Of a stretch of DNA of 6,820 bases, positions 1-6,820 are shown in pieces. The notes under the pieces were generated by a model. The model was given only the letters and a program-made list of their open reading frames with translations. It was not told where the DNA came from and searched no databases. Every line of letters starts with the position of its first letter. The stretch's first letter is position 1. Origin of the DNA: a virus (lineage: Duplodnaviria; Heunggongvirae; Uroviricota; Caudoviricetes); IMG/VR virus record IMGVR_UViG_2675903433_000007, positions 1 to 6,820 of that record; one strand, written 5' to 3'. A program made the position numbers and the translations under genes.

Positions 1-102
1 CGCGTGGAGATAATCGAACCCACACAGAATATGGCCATCAGCGACATACAGGCGGCGCGCTGTGAGTCATTCACCATCAGCGAAGGTGGGCGCAATGAGT
101 AA
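1..102 (+). CDS. C-terminal fragment of a baseplate assembly protein (P2 gpJ-like), partial at window start
   Basis: Frame 1 is open from base 1 to TAA at 100-102 (…ISEGGRNE*). The stop overlaps the start of the next gene (ATGAGTAA), as in coupled tail operons, and a J-like gene is expected just upstream of a gpI-like gene. Called from position and synteny only; the 33 aa are too short to recognise. Confidence 0.5.
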   Translation, partial: RVEIIEPTQNMAISDIQAARCESFTISEGGRNE

Positions 103-703
103 TTCGTTGTTACCACCATCAGCCAGTAATTTCATGCGTTGTGCCGAAGCCGTCGGAACACGCATTACAGACATTCCGGTAGACCTCAACACGCTGTGGT
201 CGCCGGACACCTGCCCGGTGCATCTGCTGCCTTATCTCGCCTGGGCGTTTTCCGTTGACCGTTGGGATCGCAACTGGCCGGAAGAGACAAAGCGACAGGT
301 GATTCGTGATGCATGGCTGATACACCGACACAAAGGGACCATCAGCGCACTGCGAAGAGCCGTGGAGCCTCTCGGCTACCTGATTGAAGTAAAGGAGTGG
401 TGGCAACTCAACGAGGAGCCAGGAACATTTCGCATTGTTGTCGGAGTACTTGATCAGGGCATCACCGATGAAATGTATCAGGAACTTGAGCGCCTTATTG
501 CGGATGCAAAACCAGTAAGTCGCCATCTGACGGGGCTGGCGATCAGCCTGAGTGTGAACGGAAAGATTTTCGTTGGTACGGGATGCTATCACGGCGATGC
601 CCTGACGGTTTATCCCTACACCCCGGAGTCCATTATTGTCGAAGGGGATTATTTCCCGGCCTCGGCCATTCATTTAATTGATAACCTGAGAGTAAACGCA
701 TGA
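95..703 (+). CDS. Phage tail protein I (P2 gpI-like baseplate protein)
   Basis: ORF 62-703, with the likely start at the ATG at 95 (MSNSLLPP…) overlapping the upstream stop. Motifs [41 protein letters not shown] and [14 protein letters not shown] match my recollection of the P2 gpI family. The stop overlaps the next start (ATGA at 700-703). Confidence 0.85.
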
Positions 704-1899: not shown

Positions 1900-2340
1900 A
1901 TGAATTACATATATTCCGCGACTACAAACTCTTTCTATCCGCTGGAGATGAAAGAGGATTACACTCAAGCTGACTCATGGCCAGATGATGCTGTTGAAGT
2001 TGATGAGCAAGTGTATATTGAGTTTTCCGGATTACCGCCGAAAGGAAAAATCCGTATCGCTGGGGAAAATGGTTTTCCTGCATGGTCTGAAATTCCACCA
2101 CCAACGCATGAGGAACAGATTGCCGCAGCCGAATTGAAAAAACAGCAATTGATTAATCAGTCCAACGAATATATGAATACCAAGCAATGGCCTGGTAAAG
2201 CGGCTATTGGTCGTCTGAAAGGTGAGGAACTGGCGCAATATAATTTGTGGCTGGATTATCTGGACGCACTGGAACTGGTTGATACCTCCAGTGCTCCAGA
2301 TATTGAATGGCCTACGCCTCCGGCAGTTCAGGCCAGATGA
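1900..2340 (+). CDS. Tail fiber assembly protein / chaperone for tip A (Mu U / P2 G / Tfa family)
   Basis: 146-aa ORF directly downstream of the fiber gene, with an RBS-like GGAGTG before the ATG at 1900. The C-terminal motif LWLDYLDALELVDTSSAPDIEWPTPP is typical of phage tail-fiber assembly proteins. Confidence 0.8.
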   Translation: MNYIYSATTNSFYPLEMKEDYTQADSWPDDAVEVDEQVYIEFSGLPPKGKIRIAGENGFPAWSEIPPPTHEEQIAAAELKKQQLINQSNEYMNTKQWPGKAAIGRLKGEELAQYNLWLDYLDALELVDTSSAPDIEWPTPPAVQAR

Positions 2341-2917
2341 CATCCGGCGCGGTGCTGGTATCTGTTGCCGTCACCGCGTCAATGTAATCCAGCGCAGCGT
2401 TAAGTCGGGCGGTTTCTGCCTGCGTCAGATTCCGTCCGGCCTGCAATTTCAGCTGAATCAGACTAATGGAAGCCATTGCAGTATCAATCAGTGACTGACG
2501 CTGTGCTTCTGCCGCGCCTACTGCGGCGCTATGCTGTGCCACAGTATCTGTTACCCATTTCTCACCATCCCATTCATCGTATGGCGTTAACGGGGCGATA
2601 GTGGTTGTATTTTCAGGATAATCACCCGGAGCTGTGATTTCTTTCGATTCTCCTGTTTCGGTGCTATAGATGATTTCACCGCGATGGTCTGGCACATATT
2701 CCCATGAGTTTAAATCTGCCGAACGGCAGATTGCATAACCAGCCTTATGTGTGCCAGGAGCATCTAAACAGGAATATGCAGGGATACCGACACCCACAGC
2801 AAGATATTCAGTTGATGCAGAAATATACTCCCGTGTCTCACTGTCATAGTTATAAACGGTAATCTCTCCTGTCTTTGTGGCAATAAATTTACTATTCAAG
2901 ATGGCGTTATACATCAT
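2312..2917 (-). CDS. Tail fiber assembly protein / chaperone for tip B (U'-like)
   Basis: 201-aa ORF on the - strand. Its C-terminus (LNAALDYIDAVTATDTSTAPDVIWPELP) parallels the C-terminus of the + strand chaperone. Its start overlaps the stop of the upstream - strand fiber tip (ATGA at 2914-2917). Confidence 0.8.
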   Translation of the reverse strand: MMYNAILNSKFIATKTGEITVYNYDSETREYISASTEYLAVGVGIPAYSCLDAPGTHKAGYAICRSADLNSWEYVPDHRGEIIYSTETGESKEITAPGDYPENTTTIAPLTPYDEWDGEKWVTDTVAQHSAAVGAAEAQRQSLIDTAMASISLIQLKLQAGRNLTQAETARLNAALDYIDAVTATDTSTAPDVIWPELPEA

Positions 2918-3452
2918 GCAGCCCTCACAATGTAATTAAATGAAATATTACGTGGGCGTGTCTCTGCTGCACCGACAATACTGGTACTCAACCCCGTCGC
3001 TGTTCGTTTGTTATTTTTATTTCCTTCAATCAGACAGTTGTAATCATCATTACCAATTAACGAATTAGTGGCATCAATACCGTCCGGGGACAAGGCATTA
3101 GTTGTAGAACTTAAAGTCAGCATCTCGTCTGAACTTGGAAGATTTTTTAATGGTATTTCATTGCGAGAAATACCCGCGTAAAAAAAGGACTCATGCCTGT
3201 GCGCTTCAAAAGAGTCATCCTGAAGACTTAGCAAGGCACGTCCCGCATCCACCCCGCGCCCGTCATCCCAGCCACGAATAAACTCACCACGTAAATCAGG
3301 CAATTTATTTGTCGGATAAGCCTTTGCCAGTTCCGGGTATTCTTCAGCAGAAAAAGCCGCACCGTTGCATTTCAGCCAGCCTGTTGGCGGAGTGGCGGAA
3401 GGCCACGGAACAGGCACGCCAACGGGTAATGCCGAACCTTCTCCCAAACCAA
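2914..3452 (-). CDS. Alternative tail fiber C-terminal segment (tip B), promoterless and start-less in this orientation; would fuse to the constant part after inversion
   Basis: The - strand frame is open from the right crossover site through NVGLGEGSALPVGVPVPWPSATPPTGWLKCNGAAFSAEEYPELAKAY…LPDLRGEFIRGW to the stop at 2914-2916. The GLGE junction motif is shared with the + strand fiber, and the following sequence resembles the phage tail collar domain. The ORF-track Met start at 3504 is not a real start. Confidence 0.75.
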
Positions 3453-3464
3453 CGTTTTCGTTTT
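3439..3464. other. Right recombination (crossover) site, immediately upstream of the invertase gene
   Basis: TTCTCCCAAACC-AA-CGTTTTCGTTTT. The inner half-site is the exact reverse complement of the left site's inner half (GGTTTGGGAGAA). The central dinucleotide is AA here and TT at the left site, i.e. identical in inverted orientation. The outer half-site is degenerate. Confidence 0.7.
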
Positions 3465-3518: not shown

Positions 3519-4151
3519 ATGCAAATTGGCTATATTCGTGTGTCAACAAATGACCAGAACACGGATTTACAACGCAATGCACTGAACTGCGCAGGATGTG
3601 AACTGATTTTTGAAGATAAAATCAGCGGAACGAAATCAGCCAGACCGGGATTGAAAAAACTGCTCAGAACGCTATCAGAAGGAGATACGCTGGTTGTCTG
3701 GAAGCTGGACAGACTGGGCAGAAGTATGAAACACCTGATCACGCTTATTGAGGAATTGCGGGAAAAAGGTGTTAATTTCCGTAGTCTGACGGACAGCATT
3801 GACACATCAACACCCATGGGGCGTTTCTTTTTTCACGTCATGGGGGCTTTAGCCGAAATGGAACGTGAATTAATTGTAGAGCGTACACTGGCCGGGCTGG
3901 CAGCAGCACGCGCACAAGGACGCATTGGCGGACGTCGCCCGAAGTTGACAAAAGAACAACACGGACGTCGCCCGAAGTTGACAAAAGAACAACACGAACA
4001 AATAGCGAGGCTGATTAAAAACGGTCATGACAGGAAACAACTGGCGATCATTTACGACATCGGCATATCGACGATTTATCGTTATCACCCTGTAGGCGAT
4101 ATACAGGCTGAAGAAACAACCAGGCAGACTCAGGAAAATGAAAACCGCTAA
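3519..4151 (+). CDS. Site-specific DNA invertase, small serine recombinase of the Gin/Hin/Cin/Pin family; carries an 11-aa in-frame duplication
   Basis: Start ATG at 3519 is preceded by AAAGAGGA (3503-3510). MQIGYIRVSTNDQNTDLQRNAL…LVVWKLDRLGRSMKHLI…FRSLTDSIDTSTPMGRFFFHVMGALAEMERELIVERT…GRIGGRRPKLT…QLAIIYDIGISTIYRYHP carries the resolvase/invertase catalytic-serine motif and a Hin-like C-terminal helix-turn-helix. The ORF-track extension back to 3309 has no RBS and overlaps the fiber tip. Confidence 0.9.
   Translation: MQIGYIRVSTNDQNTDLQRNALNCAGCELIFEDKISGTKSARPGLKKLLRTLSEGDTLVVWKLDRLGRSMKHLITLIEELREKGVNFRSLTDSIDTSTPMGRFFFHVMGALAEMERELIVERTLAGLAAARAQGRIGGRRPKLTKEQHGRRPKLTKEQHEQIARLIKNGHDRKQLAIIYDIGISTIYRYHPVGDIQAEETTRQTQENENR
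3930..3995 (+). repeat. Perfect tandem direct duplication, 2 x 33 bp (GGACGTCGCCCGAAGTTGACAAAAGAACAACAC), in frame within the invertase gene
   Basis: 3930-3962 and 3963-3995 are identical by direct reading. The translation is GRRPKLTKEQH-GRRPKLTKEQH. Unit boundaries are ambiguous by a few bases. Confidence 0.9.
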
Positions 4152-4170
4152 TCTGACCATTAGCGGTTTT
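4141..4170. terminator. Putative bidirectional rho-independent terminator between convergent invertase and tail protein U genes
   Basis: Perfect 12-bp stem AAAACCGCTAAT / ATTAGCGGTTTT with a 6-nt loop CTGACC. It has a T-run on the + strand and, via the AAAA at 4141-4144, a U-run on the - strand transcript. It overlaps the invertase stop codon (TAA at 4149-4151). Confidence 0.6.
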
Positions 4171-4177
4171 GCGTTAA

Positions 4178-4666
4178 TCAAAACAGCCCTTTAACGGAGC
4201 TGGCCGCGCTGTTAAGGGATGATGTGACCTTATCTTTGAAGCCGGACAGCATATCACTGAACGATGAGGATTGCAGGCGCTCCCGCAAATCCTCATCACA
4301 GCGTTCAAGGGTCAGTGAAAATTCTATCTTTTTCGCCTTACCGTAGCGATCAAACTCGGAGCGGGTCGTATTCGTTTCAGTCAGTACATACATGCCGTAA
4401 ATCTGCCCGACACCATCAATCAGAGGCCAGGGGCGTCCTGTATATGCCTGCGTGGTCAGCAACGAAAGCGACACTTCGCCACCTGTAATTTCAGGATAAA
4501 GCACACCAGAAAGAACGATGCGATCATCACCTGCACCGATATACTGCCAGCTTGCTGAACGGTTAACGCGTTCATTTTTCACATGCCGCCAGCTTTTGTT
4601 TTGCTGTAACTGCTGATGCGGCAGCGTGCGCAGCTCAAAAACAAACATGCCGTAGATCATCATCAT
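4178..4666 (-). CDS. Phage tail protein U (P2 gpU-like)
   Basis: MMMIYGMFVFELRTLPHQQLQ…RVNR…IVLSGVLYPEITGG…WPLIDGVGQIYGMYVLTET…KKIEFSLTLER matches my recollection of P2 gpU-like proteins. The ATG at 4666 is preferred over 4672 because the RBS GAGGAG (complement of 4675-4680) is only 2 nt from 4672 but 8 nt from 4666. Confidence 0.8.
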   Translation of the reverse strand: MMMIYGMFVFELRTLPHQQLQQNKSWRHVKNERVNRSASWQYIGAGDDRIVLSGVLYPEITGGEVSLSLLTTQAYTGRPWPLIDGVGQIYGMYVLTETNTTRSEFDRYGKAKKIEFSLTLERCDEDLRERLQSSSFSDMLSGFKDKVTSSLNSAASSVKGLF

Positions 4667-4678
4667 GGCCATGACTCC

Positions 4679-6820
4679 TCAATCTTTATCGTAAAAACTG
4701 CCACGCCCGGCACGGGCGCGCCGTTCCATTTCTGCCCTGACCATTTCACCGACCAGTTTCGCCAGTTCGCGGGGATTCTGTGTAACAACGTTATGCAGAT
4801 GAACATGAATTTCACCGCCAAATCCGGAGGCAACAGGCTCCCGGTTACGGGAAGTTGCAGGAACTGATGCCACTGGCGATCGTATGGCCTCTGCCACCGG
4901 GCGGGAGCTGGCCGCAACAACAGGGACCAGCGCCGGAGGCAGCGGAGCCGGAACCACAGGTGTGATATTAATTGCGGGGGCAGGCTTACTGACCTGCGCA
5001 ATCTTCCGCTCCTGCCACTCCCCACGAACGGCAAGTGCGCGGGGCAGGTTCTTAAAGACAATATCGCCGGGGCCAATACGTTTTTTCGTCTCATCAACCA
5101 GCTTACCTGTGTTATCAGCAATTTTGCTGAGTCTGCGTAGTGTACCGGTATTGCTGTCTGTGAGCGGTTTGTTGTCTTTGGGTTTATCACCTCCGGTGCC
5201 ATTGCCATTTTCCACAGGCTTCGGCGGATTGATTTTCGCAAGGTCCCCCTGAAGCAAGGCAACCTTGTCCTGAAGAATGGCCGCACGCTGTGCGTCTTCG
5301 ATTTTCTTGCGCGCCCTTTCCGCTTCATCCGGAAGCACACCGAGCTTTTCAAGTATCCACGCCAGCGTATCCAGCAACATTTTTGCAGGTGTCAGAACAA
5401 GTTGTAACGCACCGCCAAGAACGTTACCGAATGTCTCGCCAGCACTGGTACATTTATCCAGCGTTTCCTTGCTGGACTCCATCGGTGACAGCAGCGATTT
5501 AAACCAGTTAAACACCTGGCTGATCCCACTCCCGATTGCGTCAAAAACAGGACCAAACCGTTCAAAGGTTTCGCGCAACGGGGTCAGCCTTTCCATAATC
5601 CCGCTGAACACCCCGGCAAAAAATGCCCTGATGGGATCCCAGTATTTCCAGATAAGAACGGCAGCTCCGGCAAGCGCAGCCACGATAAGACCAACCGGAC
5701 TGAACAACGCCCCGATAGCGCCTCCCAGTAAAGAAACGGAACCCGTCACCATTCCCCATAGTGCTGGCAGAACCCTGACAGCATTCATTGATCCGGTCAG
5801 GAGGGAAAAACCAAGACGCAGTTTTGCCAGCGGGCCAGCAAGCACACCAATAGCCAGCGACAACGAGCCAACCGTTGCAGTCACTGCCAGCAGTGCACCG
5901 CCTGCAATCAGTAGCTGGCGCGTCAGTGCGGGATGGGCCTGCGCCAGCGCCGTCACCTTTGATACCACACGCGTGAGCCACTGCGTGACAGAACGCAGCG
6001 GACCGTCAATCAGATCTGCAATGCGGATGCGCAACCCTTCCCATGCACTGCTGAGTGATTTCAGATCGCCGTCAAGGTTGTTGGCCATAACCTTTGCCGT
6101 GCGTTCAGCCTCACCGCGCGCGCCTTCAAGTTCTTTTCTCAGTTTGGGTAAGGAGCCGTCACCTGCCGCATCAACGAGGGCCATAAATGATGTGAAAGCC
6201 TCTTCTCCGGCAATGTCCTTAAAGAACGATACCCGGTCAACTTCCCCGTATTTGCGGGTGGCTTTATAAAGATCGGCCAGCACATCCTCCATCGGGCGCA
6301 TTTTGCCGTTCGCGTCAGAGACTGCCACACCAAGCTCTTTCAGCGCCTCTGCTGCTGCCTTTGGCGGTGATGCCAGACGAGCCAGGCTGGCACGCATTGC
6401 CGTCCCGGCATCACTCCCTCTGATACCCATATTCGCCAGCACGCCCGCCATCGCTGCGGCCTGCTCCAGCGATATTCCCAGCTGACCCGCCACCGGACCT
6501 GCATATTTCATGGTTTCGCCCAGTGCGCGAAGGTCAGTGTTGGTACGGGTAAATGCTGCGGTGAGCGTGTCGCCAACCCGGTCCATCTGGTCAGCAGAAA
6601 GGCCGAACTGCGTCAGGATATTTGAGCCAATATCCGCCGTCTCGCCGAGATCCATGCCGCCAGCCGTTGCCATGCTCAGCACGCCCGGAAGCGCAGCCTG
6701 AATGGCCTGCGGAGTGAAGCCAGCCATTGCAAGAAATGCCTGCCCACTGGCGGCATCGCCTGCGGTGAACTGCGTTTCAGAGCCAAGTTTTAACGCCTGC
6801 TCACGCAGCGCCTTAAACTG
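4679..6820 (-). CDS. Phage tail tape-measure protein (P2 gpT-like), C-terminal about 714 aa; N-terminus lies beyond the window end
   Basis: The - strand frame is open from the window edge (…QFKALREQALKLGSETQFTAGDAASGQAFLAMAGFTPQ…) to the stop at 4679-4681. It is a long Ala/Gly/Leu-rich protein with a central hydrophobic block (LLIAGGALLAVTATVGSLSLAIGVLAGPL…), typical of tape-measure proteins, and sits immediately upstream of the gpU-like gene as in P2 T-U. Confidence 0.8.
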   Translation of the reverse strand, partial: QFKALREQALKLGSETQFTAGDAASGQAFLAMAGFTPQAIQAALPGVLSMATAGGMDLGETADIGSNILTQFGLSADQMDRVGDTLTAAFTRTNTDLRALGETMKYAGPVAGQLGISLEQAAAMAGVLANMGIRGSDAGTAMRASLARLASPPKAAAEALKELGVAVSDANGKMRPMEDVLADLYKATRKYGEVDRVSFFKDIAGEEAFTSFMALVDAAGDGSLPKLRKELEGARGEAERTAKVMANNLDGDLKSLSSAWEGLRIRIADLIDGPLRSVTQWLTRVVSKVTALAQAHPALTRQLLIAGGALLAVTATVGSLSLAIGVLAGPLAKLRLGFSLLTGSMNAVRVLPALWGMVTGSVSLLGGAIGALFSPVGLIVAALAGAAVLIWKYWDPIRAFFAGVFSGIMERLTPLRETFERFGPVFDAIGSGISQVFNWFKSLLSPMESSKETLDKCTSAGETFGNVLGGALQLVLTPAKMLLDTLAWILEKLGVLPDEAERARKKIEDAQRAAILQDKVALLQGDLAKINPPKPVENGNGTGGDKPKDNKPLTDSNTGTLRRLSKIADNTGKLVDETKKRIGPGDIVFKNLPRALAVRGEWQERKIAQVSKPAPAINITPVVPAPLPPALVPVVAASSRPVAEAIRSPVASVPATSRNREPVASGFGGEIHVHLHNVVTQNPRELAKLVGEMVRAEMERRARAGRGSFYDKD

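Follow-up and report, generated by a model that had tools for sequence, protein, structure and literature searches.

The T/U junction of the window (the whole 6,820-nt stretch of DNA analysed) raises the question of which of four in-frame ATG codons, at 4672, 4666, 4663 and 4660, opens the gene of the tube initiator gpU, and how far translation of that gene depends on that of the tape-measure gene (gpT) directly upstream. At 4690-4655 the minus strand reads GAT AAA GAT TGA GGA GTC ATG GCC ATG ATG ATG ATC TAC GGC. The stop codon of T is TGA (4681-4679, minus strand), two of its three bases lie in GAGGAG (4680-4675, minus strand), and ATG-GCC-ATG-ATG-ATG follows at 4672-4658 of the same strand. 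The preliminary description had placed the T stop inside the gpU Shine-Dalgarno (SD) sequence, ahead of this run of ATG codons, and its coordinates are exact to the base; the junction is a textbook example of an upstream stop codon built into an SD. The first ATG lies 2 nt past the SD and 6 nt past the T stop, and the T-U gap is +6 nt for a start at 4672 and +12 nt for a start at 4666. T and U share a reading frame in the window (TGA GGA GTC ATG…). The features of the region are the following.

4679..6820, minus strand: 3' part of the tape-measure gene (gpT), open to the window edge, with stop codon TGA at 4681-4679
4675..4681, minus strand: gpU SD element UGAGGAG, sharing bases with the T stop codon
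4667..4674, minus strand: 8-nt SD-to-start spacer UCAUGGCC, including the in-frame ATG 4672-4670 and the variable codon GCC/GTC
4658..4666, minus strand: ATG-ATG-ATG run, with the predicted gpU start at ATG 4666-4664 and the other two codons as Met2 and Met3
4178..4666, minus strand: gpU (tube initiator), 162 aa
4141..4170: bidirectional intrinsic terminator where the gpU and invertase genes converge

Pfam matches bear out the gene names proposed earlier. The ORF at 4178-4672 matches Phage_P2_GpU (PF06995, E = 5.5e-39, 133 bits against a cut-off of 27.5) over the full length of the profile, positions 1-120 of 120 aligning with gpU residues 8-127. The ORF at 4679+ matches PhageMin_Tail (PF10145, E = 1.3e-51), its translation runs to the window end with no internal stop, and NC_049343, NC_026014 and NZ_CP024155 all annotate the gene as tape measure. 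T and U are late tail operon genes of a P88-like, P2-family E. coli prophage. The gpU gene stands directly 3' of the tape-measure gene in the contractile-tail module, an order common to P2, phiCTX and RSA1, and closes this lineage's FI-FII-E-E'-T-U operon, according to the gene order of annotated relatives; a search between T and U found no promoter-like site. Downstream of gpU, in place of the hub gene D, there is a terminator, whose 12-bp stem has an A-run on one side and a T-run on the other (z of the fold -3.7 for the minus strand, -4.5 for the plus strand), followed by a convergent invertase gene. The related phage NC_049343 has a gene for a Phage_GPD protein beside the sheath gene, in divergent orientation; gpU without downstream D is a known gene-order variant and no criterion for the protein family. 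The invertase of the window carries a 33-bp duplication that is absent from the phage and prophage relatives compared and from near-identical IMG/VR copies.

The T/U junction of P2, within the FETUD tail operon, comprises the same gene pair (gpT tape measure, gpU tube initiator) in the same order. In both cases the T stop forms part of the gpU SD (ggTTAAGGAGGTGAcgaaaaATGATG in P2, gatTGAGGAGtcatggccATGATGATG in the window) and gpU begins MM[L/M]x[L/Y]GMFVF. The window differs from P2 in a TGA instead of a TAA stop, a weaker SD, an extra in-frame ATG in the spacer and Met instead of Leu as third gpU residue; moreover, the D gene overlaps the end of U in P2, whereas in the window U closes the operon, the bidirectional terminator and the invertase come next and gpD is encoded elsewhere. 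According to cryo-EM, P2 gpU is a hexameric tube initiator seated on the gpD hub, between it and the tube, with six copies per virion and gpD forming a trimer (bioRxiv 10.64898/2026.09.14.750843). Sequence and profile searches of the PDB with gpU returned pyocin R2 PA0626 ('ripcord', PDB 6u5b) only and no P2 gpU chain. PA0626 contains a homologous GpU domain (profile E = 1e-6), the alignment starting at the FVF motif, and has a 158-aa N-terminal extension that is missing from the gpU of the window. An AlphaFold2 model of gpU from a 21-sequence alignment had a mean pLDDT of 44 and was not used.

Much closer are the Escherichia phages P88 (Xuanwuvirus), 503458, 520873 and 500465-2 (Gemsvirus) together with matching E. 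coli prophages, which have 92-97% DNA identity to the window in the T-U-invertase region, the same gene order and a gpU identical or 99% identical to that of the window, but different fibre tips. Of 5,426 complete E. coli genomes, about 1,300 have sequence similar to this region (701 bp), mostly at 95-99% identity. Records of this group disagree on the form of gpU, which has 164 aa in those of the phages and 162 aa in bacterial RefSeq.

The preliminary description had pointed to an alignment with gpU homologues, and comparison of the same junction in 83 loci from various species and phages, P2 and phiCTX included, speaks clearly for the second ATG. The codon aligned with 4666 is ATG in 80 of the 83 loci; the other three, which belong to the most distant phages, show one-codon alignment shifts. 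At the codon aligned with 4672, ATG is found in three loci only, namely the window, L083 and L084 (gpU about 98% or more identical), and also in near-identical IMG/VR copies of this prophage. Eleven loci have an in-frame TAA two codons 5' of the conserved ATG, so that their gpU homologue cannot be longer, and about 25 more have an in-frame stop at most seven codons upstream of it, with no alternative start. The best SD lies 6-8 nt 5' of the conserved ATG in 69 of the 83 loci. Eighty of the loci were collected by two patterns, one of them containing MM, and conservation of the second Met is thus partly built in; the bias does not touch the first Met of the triplet, the codons upstream or the six phage loci derived by tblastn.

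Beyond the conserved ATG, the second position of the run is ATG, TTA, TTG or CTG and the third ATG, CTG or CTC across the 83 loci, and the conserved N-terminus of gpU reads M-M-[M/L]-x-[Y/F/L]-G-[M/L]-F-V-F. P2 gpU begins MMLALGMFVF right after TAAGGAGGTGAcgaaaa, and phiCTX gpU begins MMLSLGMFVF. Upstream, the elements TAAGGAG, TAAGGGGAGG and TGAGG occupy the same place in relatives, and P2 has TAAGGAGGTGA. A short T-U gap (12 nt in the window and in L083, 14 nt in L099), with an SD that adjoins the T stop or overlaps it, is seen repeatedly in the family; the layout is no freak of chance, and in the sequences compared the T stop normally lies at the gpU SD or inside it. By our own estimate, an in-frame ATG would arise by chance in a two-codon spacer with a probability of about 3%, and the extra ATG 4672, confined to one lineage among the 83 loci, is compatible with chance. 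Instead of GCC as the codon after it, GTC stands in 7 of the 80 near-identical loci from IMG/VR, and called proteins of the protein collection begin MA, MV or MI. IMG/VR copies were used only for the TGA/TCATGG[C/T]C variants and for the absence of the invertase duplication; a single-protein IMG/VR scan returned 99-100% identical copies only and is uninformative on start conservation.

The geometry of the SD points the same way. In register, UGAGGAG forms a duplex of -7.6 kcal/mol with the 3' end of 16S rRNA, and a score combining the SD duplex with a spacing penalty ranks 4666 first (-7.3 kcal/mol), ahead of 4663 (-5.9), 4660 (-3.6) and 4672 (-2.2). The spacer of 8 nt in front of 4666 falls within the 5-9 nt criterion for SD-led initiation, and the distance from the 16S 3' end to the start codon (DtoStart) is 15 for 4666 and 9 for 4672, with an optimum of 13-14. 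Short aligned spacing has been reported to physically exclude a 5' start codon (PMC9841429), and the earlier view that the first ATG stands too near the SD agrees with the DtoStart of 9. The ATGs at 4663 and 4660 are also at workable distances. Pairing in another register, through GAGG (4680-4677), leaves 4 nt to ATG 4672, for which the crude score gives about 10% of the initiation at 4666; a minor MAMMM form of gpU may accordingly be made alongside the main one.

Annotation is divided along the same line. PGAP starts gpU at 4666 in the 100% identical E. coli chromosome NZ_CP024155 (WP_000979945.1, 162 aa), and large NCBI clusters of gpU proteins have 162 aa and begin MMM; the phage RefSeq records NC_049343 and NC_026014 use 4672 (495-nt genes, 164 aa). 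Papers citing the P2 FETUD operon paper yielded no N-terminal sequence data for gpU. Judged by the comparative loci, the SD geometry and the PGAP annotation, gpU almost certainly starts at the second ATG, 4666, with 162 aa and the N-terminus MMMIYG… that the preliminary description had favoured. The comparative data indicate that the PGAP call is right, and bacterial RefSeq annotation already has this start. The matter is one of annotation only, phage RefSeq (P88, 500465-2) giving gpU two more N-terminal residues than PGAP; the junction raises no new question on tail assembly or translation.

The explanation that follows is, as a whole, very probable. Ribosomes would end T at UGA 4681-4679, the same bases opening the SD UGAGGAG (4681-4675), which would set the P-site of the 30S subunit over AUG 4666, eight bases downstream, and so lead to a gpU of 162 aa beginning MMMIYGMFVF. 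AUG 4672 would be a lineage-specific accident in the SD-to-start spacer, used rarely, if at all, and AUGs 4663 and 4660 would simply encode Met residues of a conserved hydrophobic strand at the N-terminus and not act as spare starts. Since the T stop lies within one ribosome footprint of the U start, part of U translation may be reinitiation by ribosomes that have just completed T, and the remainder would presumably be supplied by free 30S subunits binding the strong SD.

A start at the first ATG, 4672, would give a protein of 164 aa beginning MAMMMIYG (AMMM after Met removal), with the ribosome that terminates at UGA reinitiating at the nearest AUG. This start yields the longest ORF, has been annotated as 495-nt genes in NC_049343 and NC_026014, is only 6 nt past the T stop, which favours local reinitiation, and gains a 4-nt spacer in the alternative GAGG register; the long N-terminal extension of pyocin PA0626 further implies that the fold tolerates extra residues. 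It is nonetheless very unlikely, as the ATG is missing from 80 of the 83 related junctions, 11 of which carry an in-frame stop in the two codons before the conserved ATG, the next codon varies between A, V and I among near-identical copies, DtoStart is 9 in the strong SD register, the score is 5 kcal/mol worse than that of 4666, and PGAP rejects this start. Initiation might instead be spread over several ATGs, producing a ragged N-terminus (MAMMM/MMM/MM/M-IYG), with the run as a redundant landing pad for ribosomes leaving T. The SD is at 8-14 nt from each of 4666, 4663 and 4660, whose scores differ by no more than about 4 kcal/mol; most Enterobacterales loci preserve the triplet ATGATGATG in their DNA, and some protein clusters begin MMIYG. 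In distant relatives, however, the second and third positions are TTA, CTG, CTC or TTG (Leu), mostly not start codons, and the M/L pattern points to a protein constraint (hydrophobic strand) rather than one on initiation; with only the first ATG of the run universal, mixed initiation is hardly to be expected. We consider it very improbable that selection at the RNA level acts on the ATG-ATG-ATG run, making it a multi-AUG landing pad by which reinitiation from the T stop is increased and the T:U ratio set (trimeric tape measure, hexameric initiator), the upstream AUG adding a reinitiation-specific AMMM-gpU isoform in this lineage.

Of the E. coli stop codons UGA is the leakiest, T and U are in the same frame, and the stop is five codons upstream of ATG 4666, so a functional T-U fusion by read-through might be imagined. 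The frame relation is not conserved, though: the T-U gaps of relatives are mostly 2-17 nt, many of them not multiples of three (4, 5, 10, 11, 14), and L083 and L084, the two closest relatives from other genomes, use TAA. Nor is a fusion reported in the P2 virion structure (bioRxiv 10.64898/2026.09.14.750843), and the read-through product can be regarded as effectively refuted, with next to no chance of being real.

With the start at 4666, the 'tight' translational coupling of T and U in the preliminary description is unsupported: the gap is +12 nt with no overlap, and significant mRNA structure masking the SD or start was not found at the junction, the 121-nt fold having z = -1.0 and 29 of 200 shuffles folding at least as well. 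Unmasking of a structured ribosome-binding site was therefore rejected as a coupling element, the local fold being not significant. A terminator-like hairpin within T (4720-4702), considered as a conserved attenuator, was likewise discarded; it is GC-rich, with z = -1.4 no better than shuffles, and its U-run is not kept in relatives with about 74% identical gpU. The T/U gap belongs with the E. coli co-directional gene pairs separated by +9 to +12 nt (Huber et al. 2023, PMC10666635), a class of 203 pairs, and like them it has just enough room for an SD but none for a terminator or promoter. Published reporter data for this class show weak or variable termination-reinitiation (TeRe), and the authors favour weak coupling or independent initiation, suggesting that translation from its own SD is 'more likely'; in reporters of native E. 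coli gene pairs, reinitiation fell by 40-80% at +14 nt (PMC10666635). The TeRe criterion of that study takes in stop/start overlaps of -1, -4 or -8 and gaps up to about 10 nt (PMC10666635); the T/U junction, at +12 nt, lies outside these limits, and three other junctions of the window lie within them.

95..102, plus strand: ATGAGTAA, in which the gpI start ATG 95-97 overlaps the gpJ stop TAA 100-102 (-8 overlap)
700..703, plus strand: ATGA, in which the tail-fibre start overlaps the gpI stop (-4 overlap)
2914..2917, minus strand: ATGA, in which the start of the alternative tail-fibre chaperone overlaps the stop of the alternative fibre tip ORF (-4 overlap)

These ATGA and ATGAGTAA overlaps at J/I, I/fibre and tip/chaperone, also listed in the earlier account, are real and can be read in the sequence. 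The annotation of a relative has J ending 8 nt past the I start, and the alternative fibre tip and chaperone ORFs contain Pfam Caudo_TAP and Collar domains. T and U may plausibly be coupled in translation; coupling is better founded for the true -4 and -8 overlaps at J/I, I/H and tip/chaperone.

The junction between the tape-measure gene T and the tube-initiator gene U, both on the minus strand, reads GAT AAA GAT TGA GGA GTC ATG GCC ATG ATG ATG ATC TAC GGC from 4690 to 4655, and all junction coordinates in the preliminary description are correct against this sequence, confirming the observation itself. The upstream ORF encodes a tape-measure protein (Pfam PhageMin_Tail, E = 1.3e-51) and the downstream one a full-length Phage_P2_GpU protein (Pfam, E = 5.5e-39). 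In phage P2, six copies of gpU sit atop the gpD trimer as the tube initiator (2026 cryo-EM preprint, bioRxiv 10.64898/2026.09.14.750843). By sequence, PA0626 of pyocin R2 is the single solved relative; the structure prediction made here was of too low quality for use. The elements of the junction are listed below; start scores sum the Shine-Dalgarno (SD) duplex and a spacing penalty of the Salis form, and spacing is counted from the SD 3' end to the ATG.

4681-4679, minus strand: stop codon TGA of T, ending a long ORF that runs in from the window edge
4680-4675, minus strand: GAGGAG, the SD motif
4672, minus strand: in-frame ATG, 2 bases from the SD; score -2.2 kcal/mol at best, in an alternative 4-bp GAGG register
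4666, minus strand: in-frame ATG, 8 bases from the SD; score -7.3 kcal/mol
4663, minus strand: in-frame ATG, 11 bases from the SD; score -5.9 kcal/mol
4660, minus strand: in-frame ATG, 14 bases from the SD; score -3.6 kcal/mol

A gpU starting with MMMIYG at ATG 4666, as first proposed from the sequence, is strongly supported by conservation of this ATG among aligned loci, by SD geometry and by existing PGAP annotation. The duplex of UGAGGAG with the 16S 3' end has an energy of -7.6 kcal/mol in its strong register. ATG 4672 is indeed too close to the ribosome-binding site, with the shortest spacing, the worst score and a DtoStart of 9, against 15 for ATG 4666 and a reported optimum of 13-14 (PMC9841429). 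A strong SD at short aligned spacing is reported to exclude a 5' start codon physically from the P-site (PMC9841429). By the crude score, a minor MAMMM product (the 164-aa form) at roughly 10% is possible.

The alignment of gpU homologues, proposed earlier as a check, likewise favours ATG 4666 over 4672. The set comprised one genome per species (80 loci) and six phages with annotation, P2, phiCTX and RSA1 among them; the conserved G-x-F-V-F motif anchored the alignment, and 83 loci were usable. ATG occupies the codon aligned with 4666 in 80 of these; in the other three, all from the most distant phages, the alignment is shifted by one codon. It should be noted that 'MM' formed part of one of two search patterns, so that conservation of the second methionine is partly built in; the first methionine and the codons upstream are free of this bias. 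Besides the window, only L083 and L084, two relatives with ~98% identical gpU, have ATG at the codon equivalent to 4672. Eleven loci carry an in-frame TAA there, two codons before the conserved ATG, and about 25 more have an in-frame stop at most seven codons upstream of it, without an alternative start. The best SD lies 6-8 nt 5' of the conserved ATG in 69 of the 83 loci; P2 gpU begins MMLALGMFVF immediately 3' of TAAGGAGGTGAcgaaaa, and phiCTX gpU begins MMLSLGMFVF. In a set of 80 near-identical IMG/VR copies, ATG 4672 is followed by GCC 72 times and by GTC 7 times, and called gpU proteins in the protein collection begin MA-, MV- or MI-MMM, a variability that would be expected of spacer sequence.

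The ATGATGATG form of the ATG run is kept in most Enterobacterales loci. More distant relatives have TTA, TTG or CTG at the second codon and CTG or CTC at the third, the first ATG alone being universal. This M-M/L-M/L pattern heading a hydrophobic segment speaks for a protein-level constraint rather than for a need for multiple starts.

NZ_CP024155 is 100% identical to the window over 4100-4800. There PGAP ends T at the equivalent of 4679 and begins a 162-aa 'phage tail protein' (WP_000979945.1) at that of 4666; large NCBI gpU clusters are also 162 aa long with the N-terminus MMMIYG, and the proposed start is therefore not new, being the one in use in bacterial RefSeq. In NC_049343 and NC_026014, both phage RefSeq records, a 495-nt gene encodes a gpU of 164 aa. 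As a side observation, the prophage copy in the E. coli genome NZ_CP024155.1 (locus L169, 2316-5122), identical at the junction, looks degraded: its tape-measure gene carries a frameshift flag, and a number of its fibre genes are pseudogene fragments. L084 (NZ_JBQPOM010000071.1) is labelled Vagococcus sp., a Gram-positive genus, while its gpU and junction are those of an enterobacterial prophage (98% identical); contamination or a mislabelled assembly is likely.

A T stop adjoining or within the gpU SD is a family trait, with the junction reading T(AA/GA/AG)GG… in about half of the loci. Most T-U gaps (three entries corrected by eye) span 2-17 nt, and their distribution has modes at 3-5 nt and at 10-15 nt; the window has +12 nt with the start at 4666. 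In E. coli, 203 gene pairs form a small peak at +9 to +12 nt and are argued to be 'more likely' independently initiated, and reinitiation was measured to fall by 40-80% at +14 nt (Huber et al. 2023, PMC10666635). Folding of the junction mRNA gives no significant structure (z = -1.0), and no promoter-like site was found between T and U. Given this fold and the lack of an intergenic promoter-like site, co-transcription and some coupling are reasonable. The 'tight' coupling proposed earlier is plausible, and at +12 nt less likely than at true overlaps. Such overlaps are present where described: ATGAGTAA at 95-102 (gpJ stop and gpI start), ATGA at 700-703 (I/fibre) and ATGA at 2917-2914, minus strand (tip/chaperone). 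These -4 and -8 overlaps fit the classical termination-reinitiation class.

Two other readings of the junction were rejected. T and U share one reading frame in the window, parted by TGA GGA GTC ATG GCC (4666-4681, minus strand), as a fusion by UGA read-through would need; in relatives, gap lengths are often not divisible by three and the frame relation is unconserved, and T ends in TAA in L083 and L084, the nearest two relatives in other genomes. The other was a terminator inside the final 40 nt of T, shortly before the gpU SD:

4699-4720, minus strand: terminator-like GC-rich hairpin (4720-4702; -17.1 kcal/mol), then GCAGUUUUU

This hairpin is no better than shuffled sequences (z = -1.4), and its U-run is unconserved in relatives.

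The T/U junction is an ordinary one within an operon, already annotated, and the E. coli prophage that carries it is very common. E. coli phages of the P2 family (Peduoviridae), among them P88, 503458, 520873 and 500465-2, match the window at 92-97% DNA identity, and matches to the 701-bp T-U region, mostly at 95-99% identity, occur in ~1,300 of 5,426 complete E. coli genomes. In these phages, FI-FII-E-E'-T-U lies on a single strand, convergent with V-W-J-I-H, an invertible fibre-tip cassette and a DNA invertase; with this layout, and with hub gene D located elsewhere, adjoining the sheath gene, gpU is the final gene of its operon. After it, separating it from the convergent invertase gene and overlapping the last invertase codons, lies:

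4141-4170, both strands: strong bidirectional intrinsic terminator, 12-bp stem with A-run and T-run (z = -3.7 and -4.5)

The invertase gene (3519-4151, plus strand) holds a perfect 33-bp tandem duplication at 3929-3996 (2.1 copies, 100% match), giving an in-frame GRRPKLTKEQH-GRRPKLTKEQH between the resolvase catalytic domain and HTH_7. The best complete E. coli genome matches (178 bp vs 211) lack it, as do P88, 500465-2, NZ_CP024155 and all 80 near-identical IMG/VR loci; it may alter or disable fibre-tip inversion. Inverted repeats of 18 nt, 94% complementary, lie at 1523-1540 in the tail-fibre gene and 3438-3455 in the alternative tip ORF; crossover between them probably inverts a ~1.9-kb segment, exchanging fibre tip and chaperone. 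The convergent tail-fibre chaperone genes, 1900-2340 (plus strand) and 2312-2917 (minus strand), share their last 29 nt (2312-2340), as likewise annotated in phage 500465-2.
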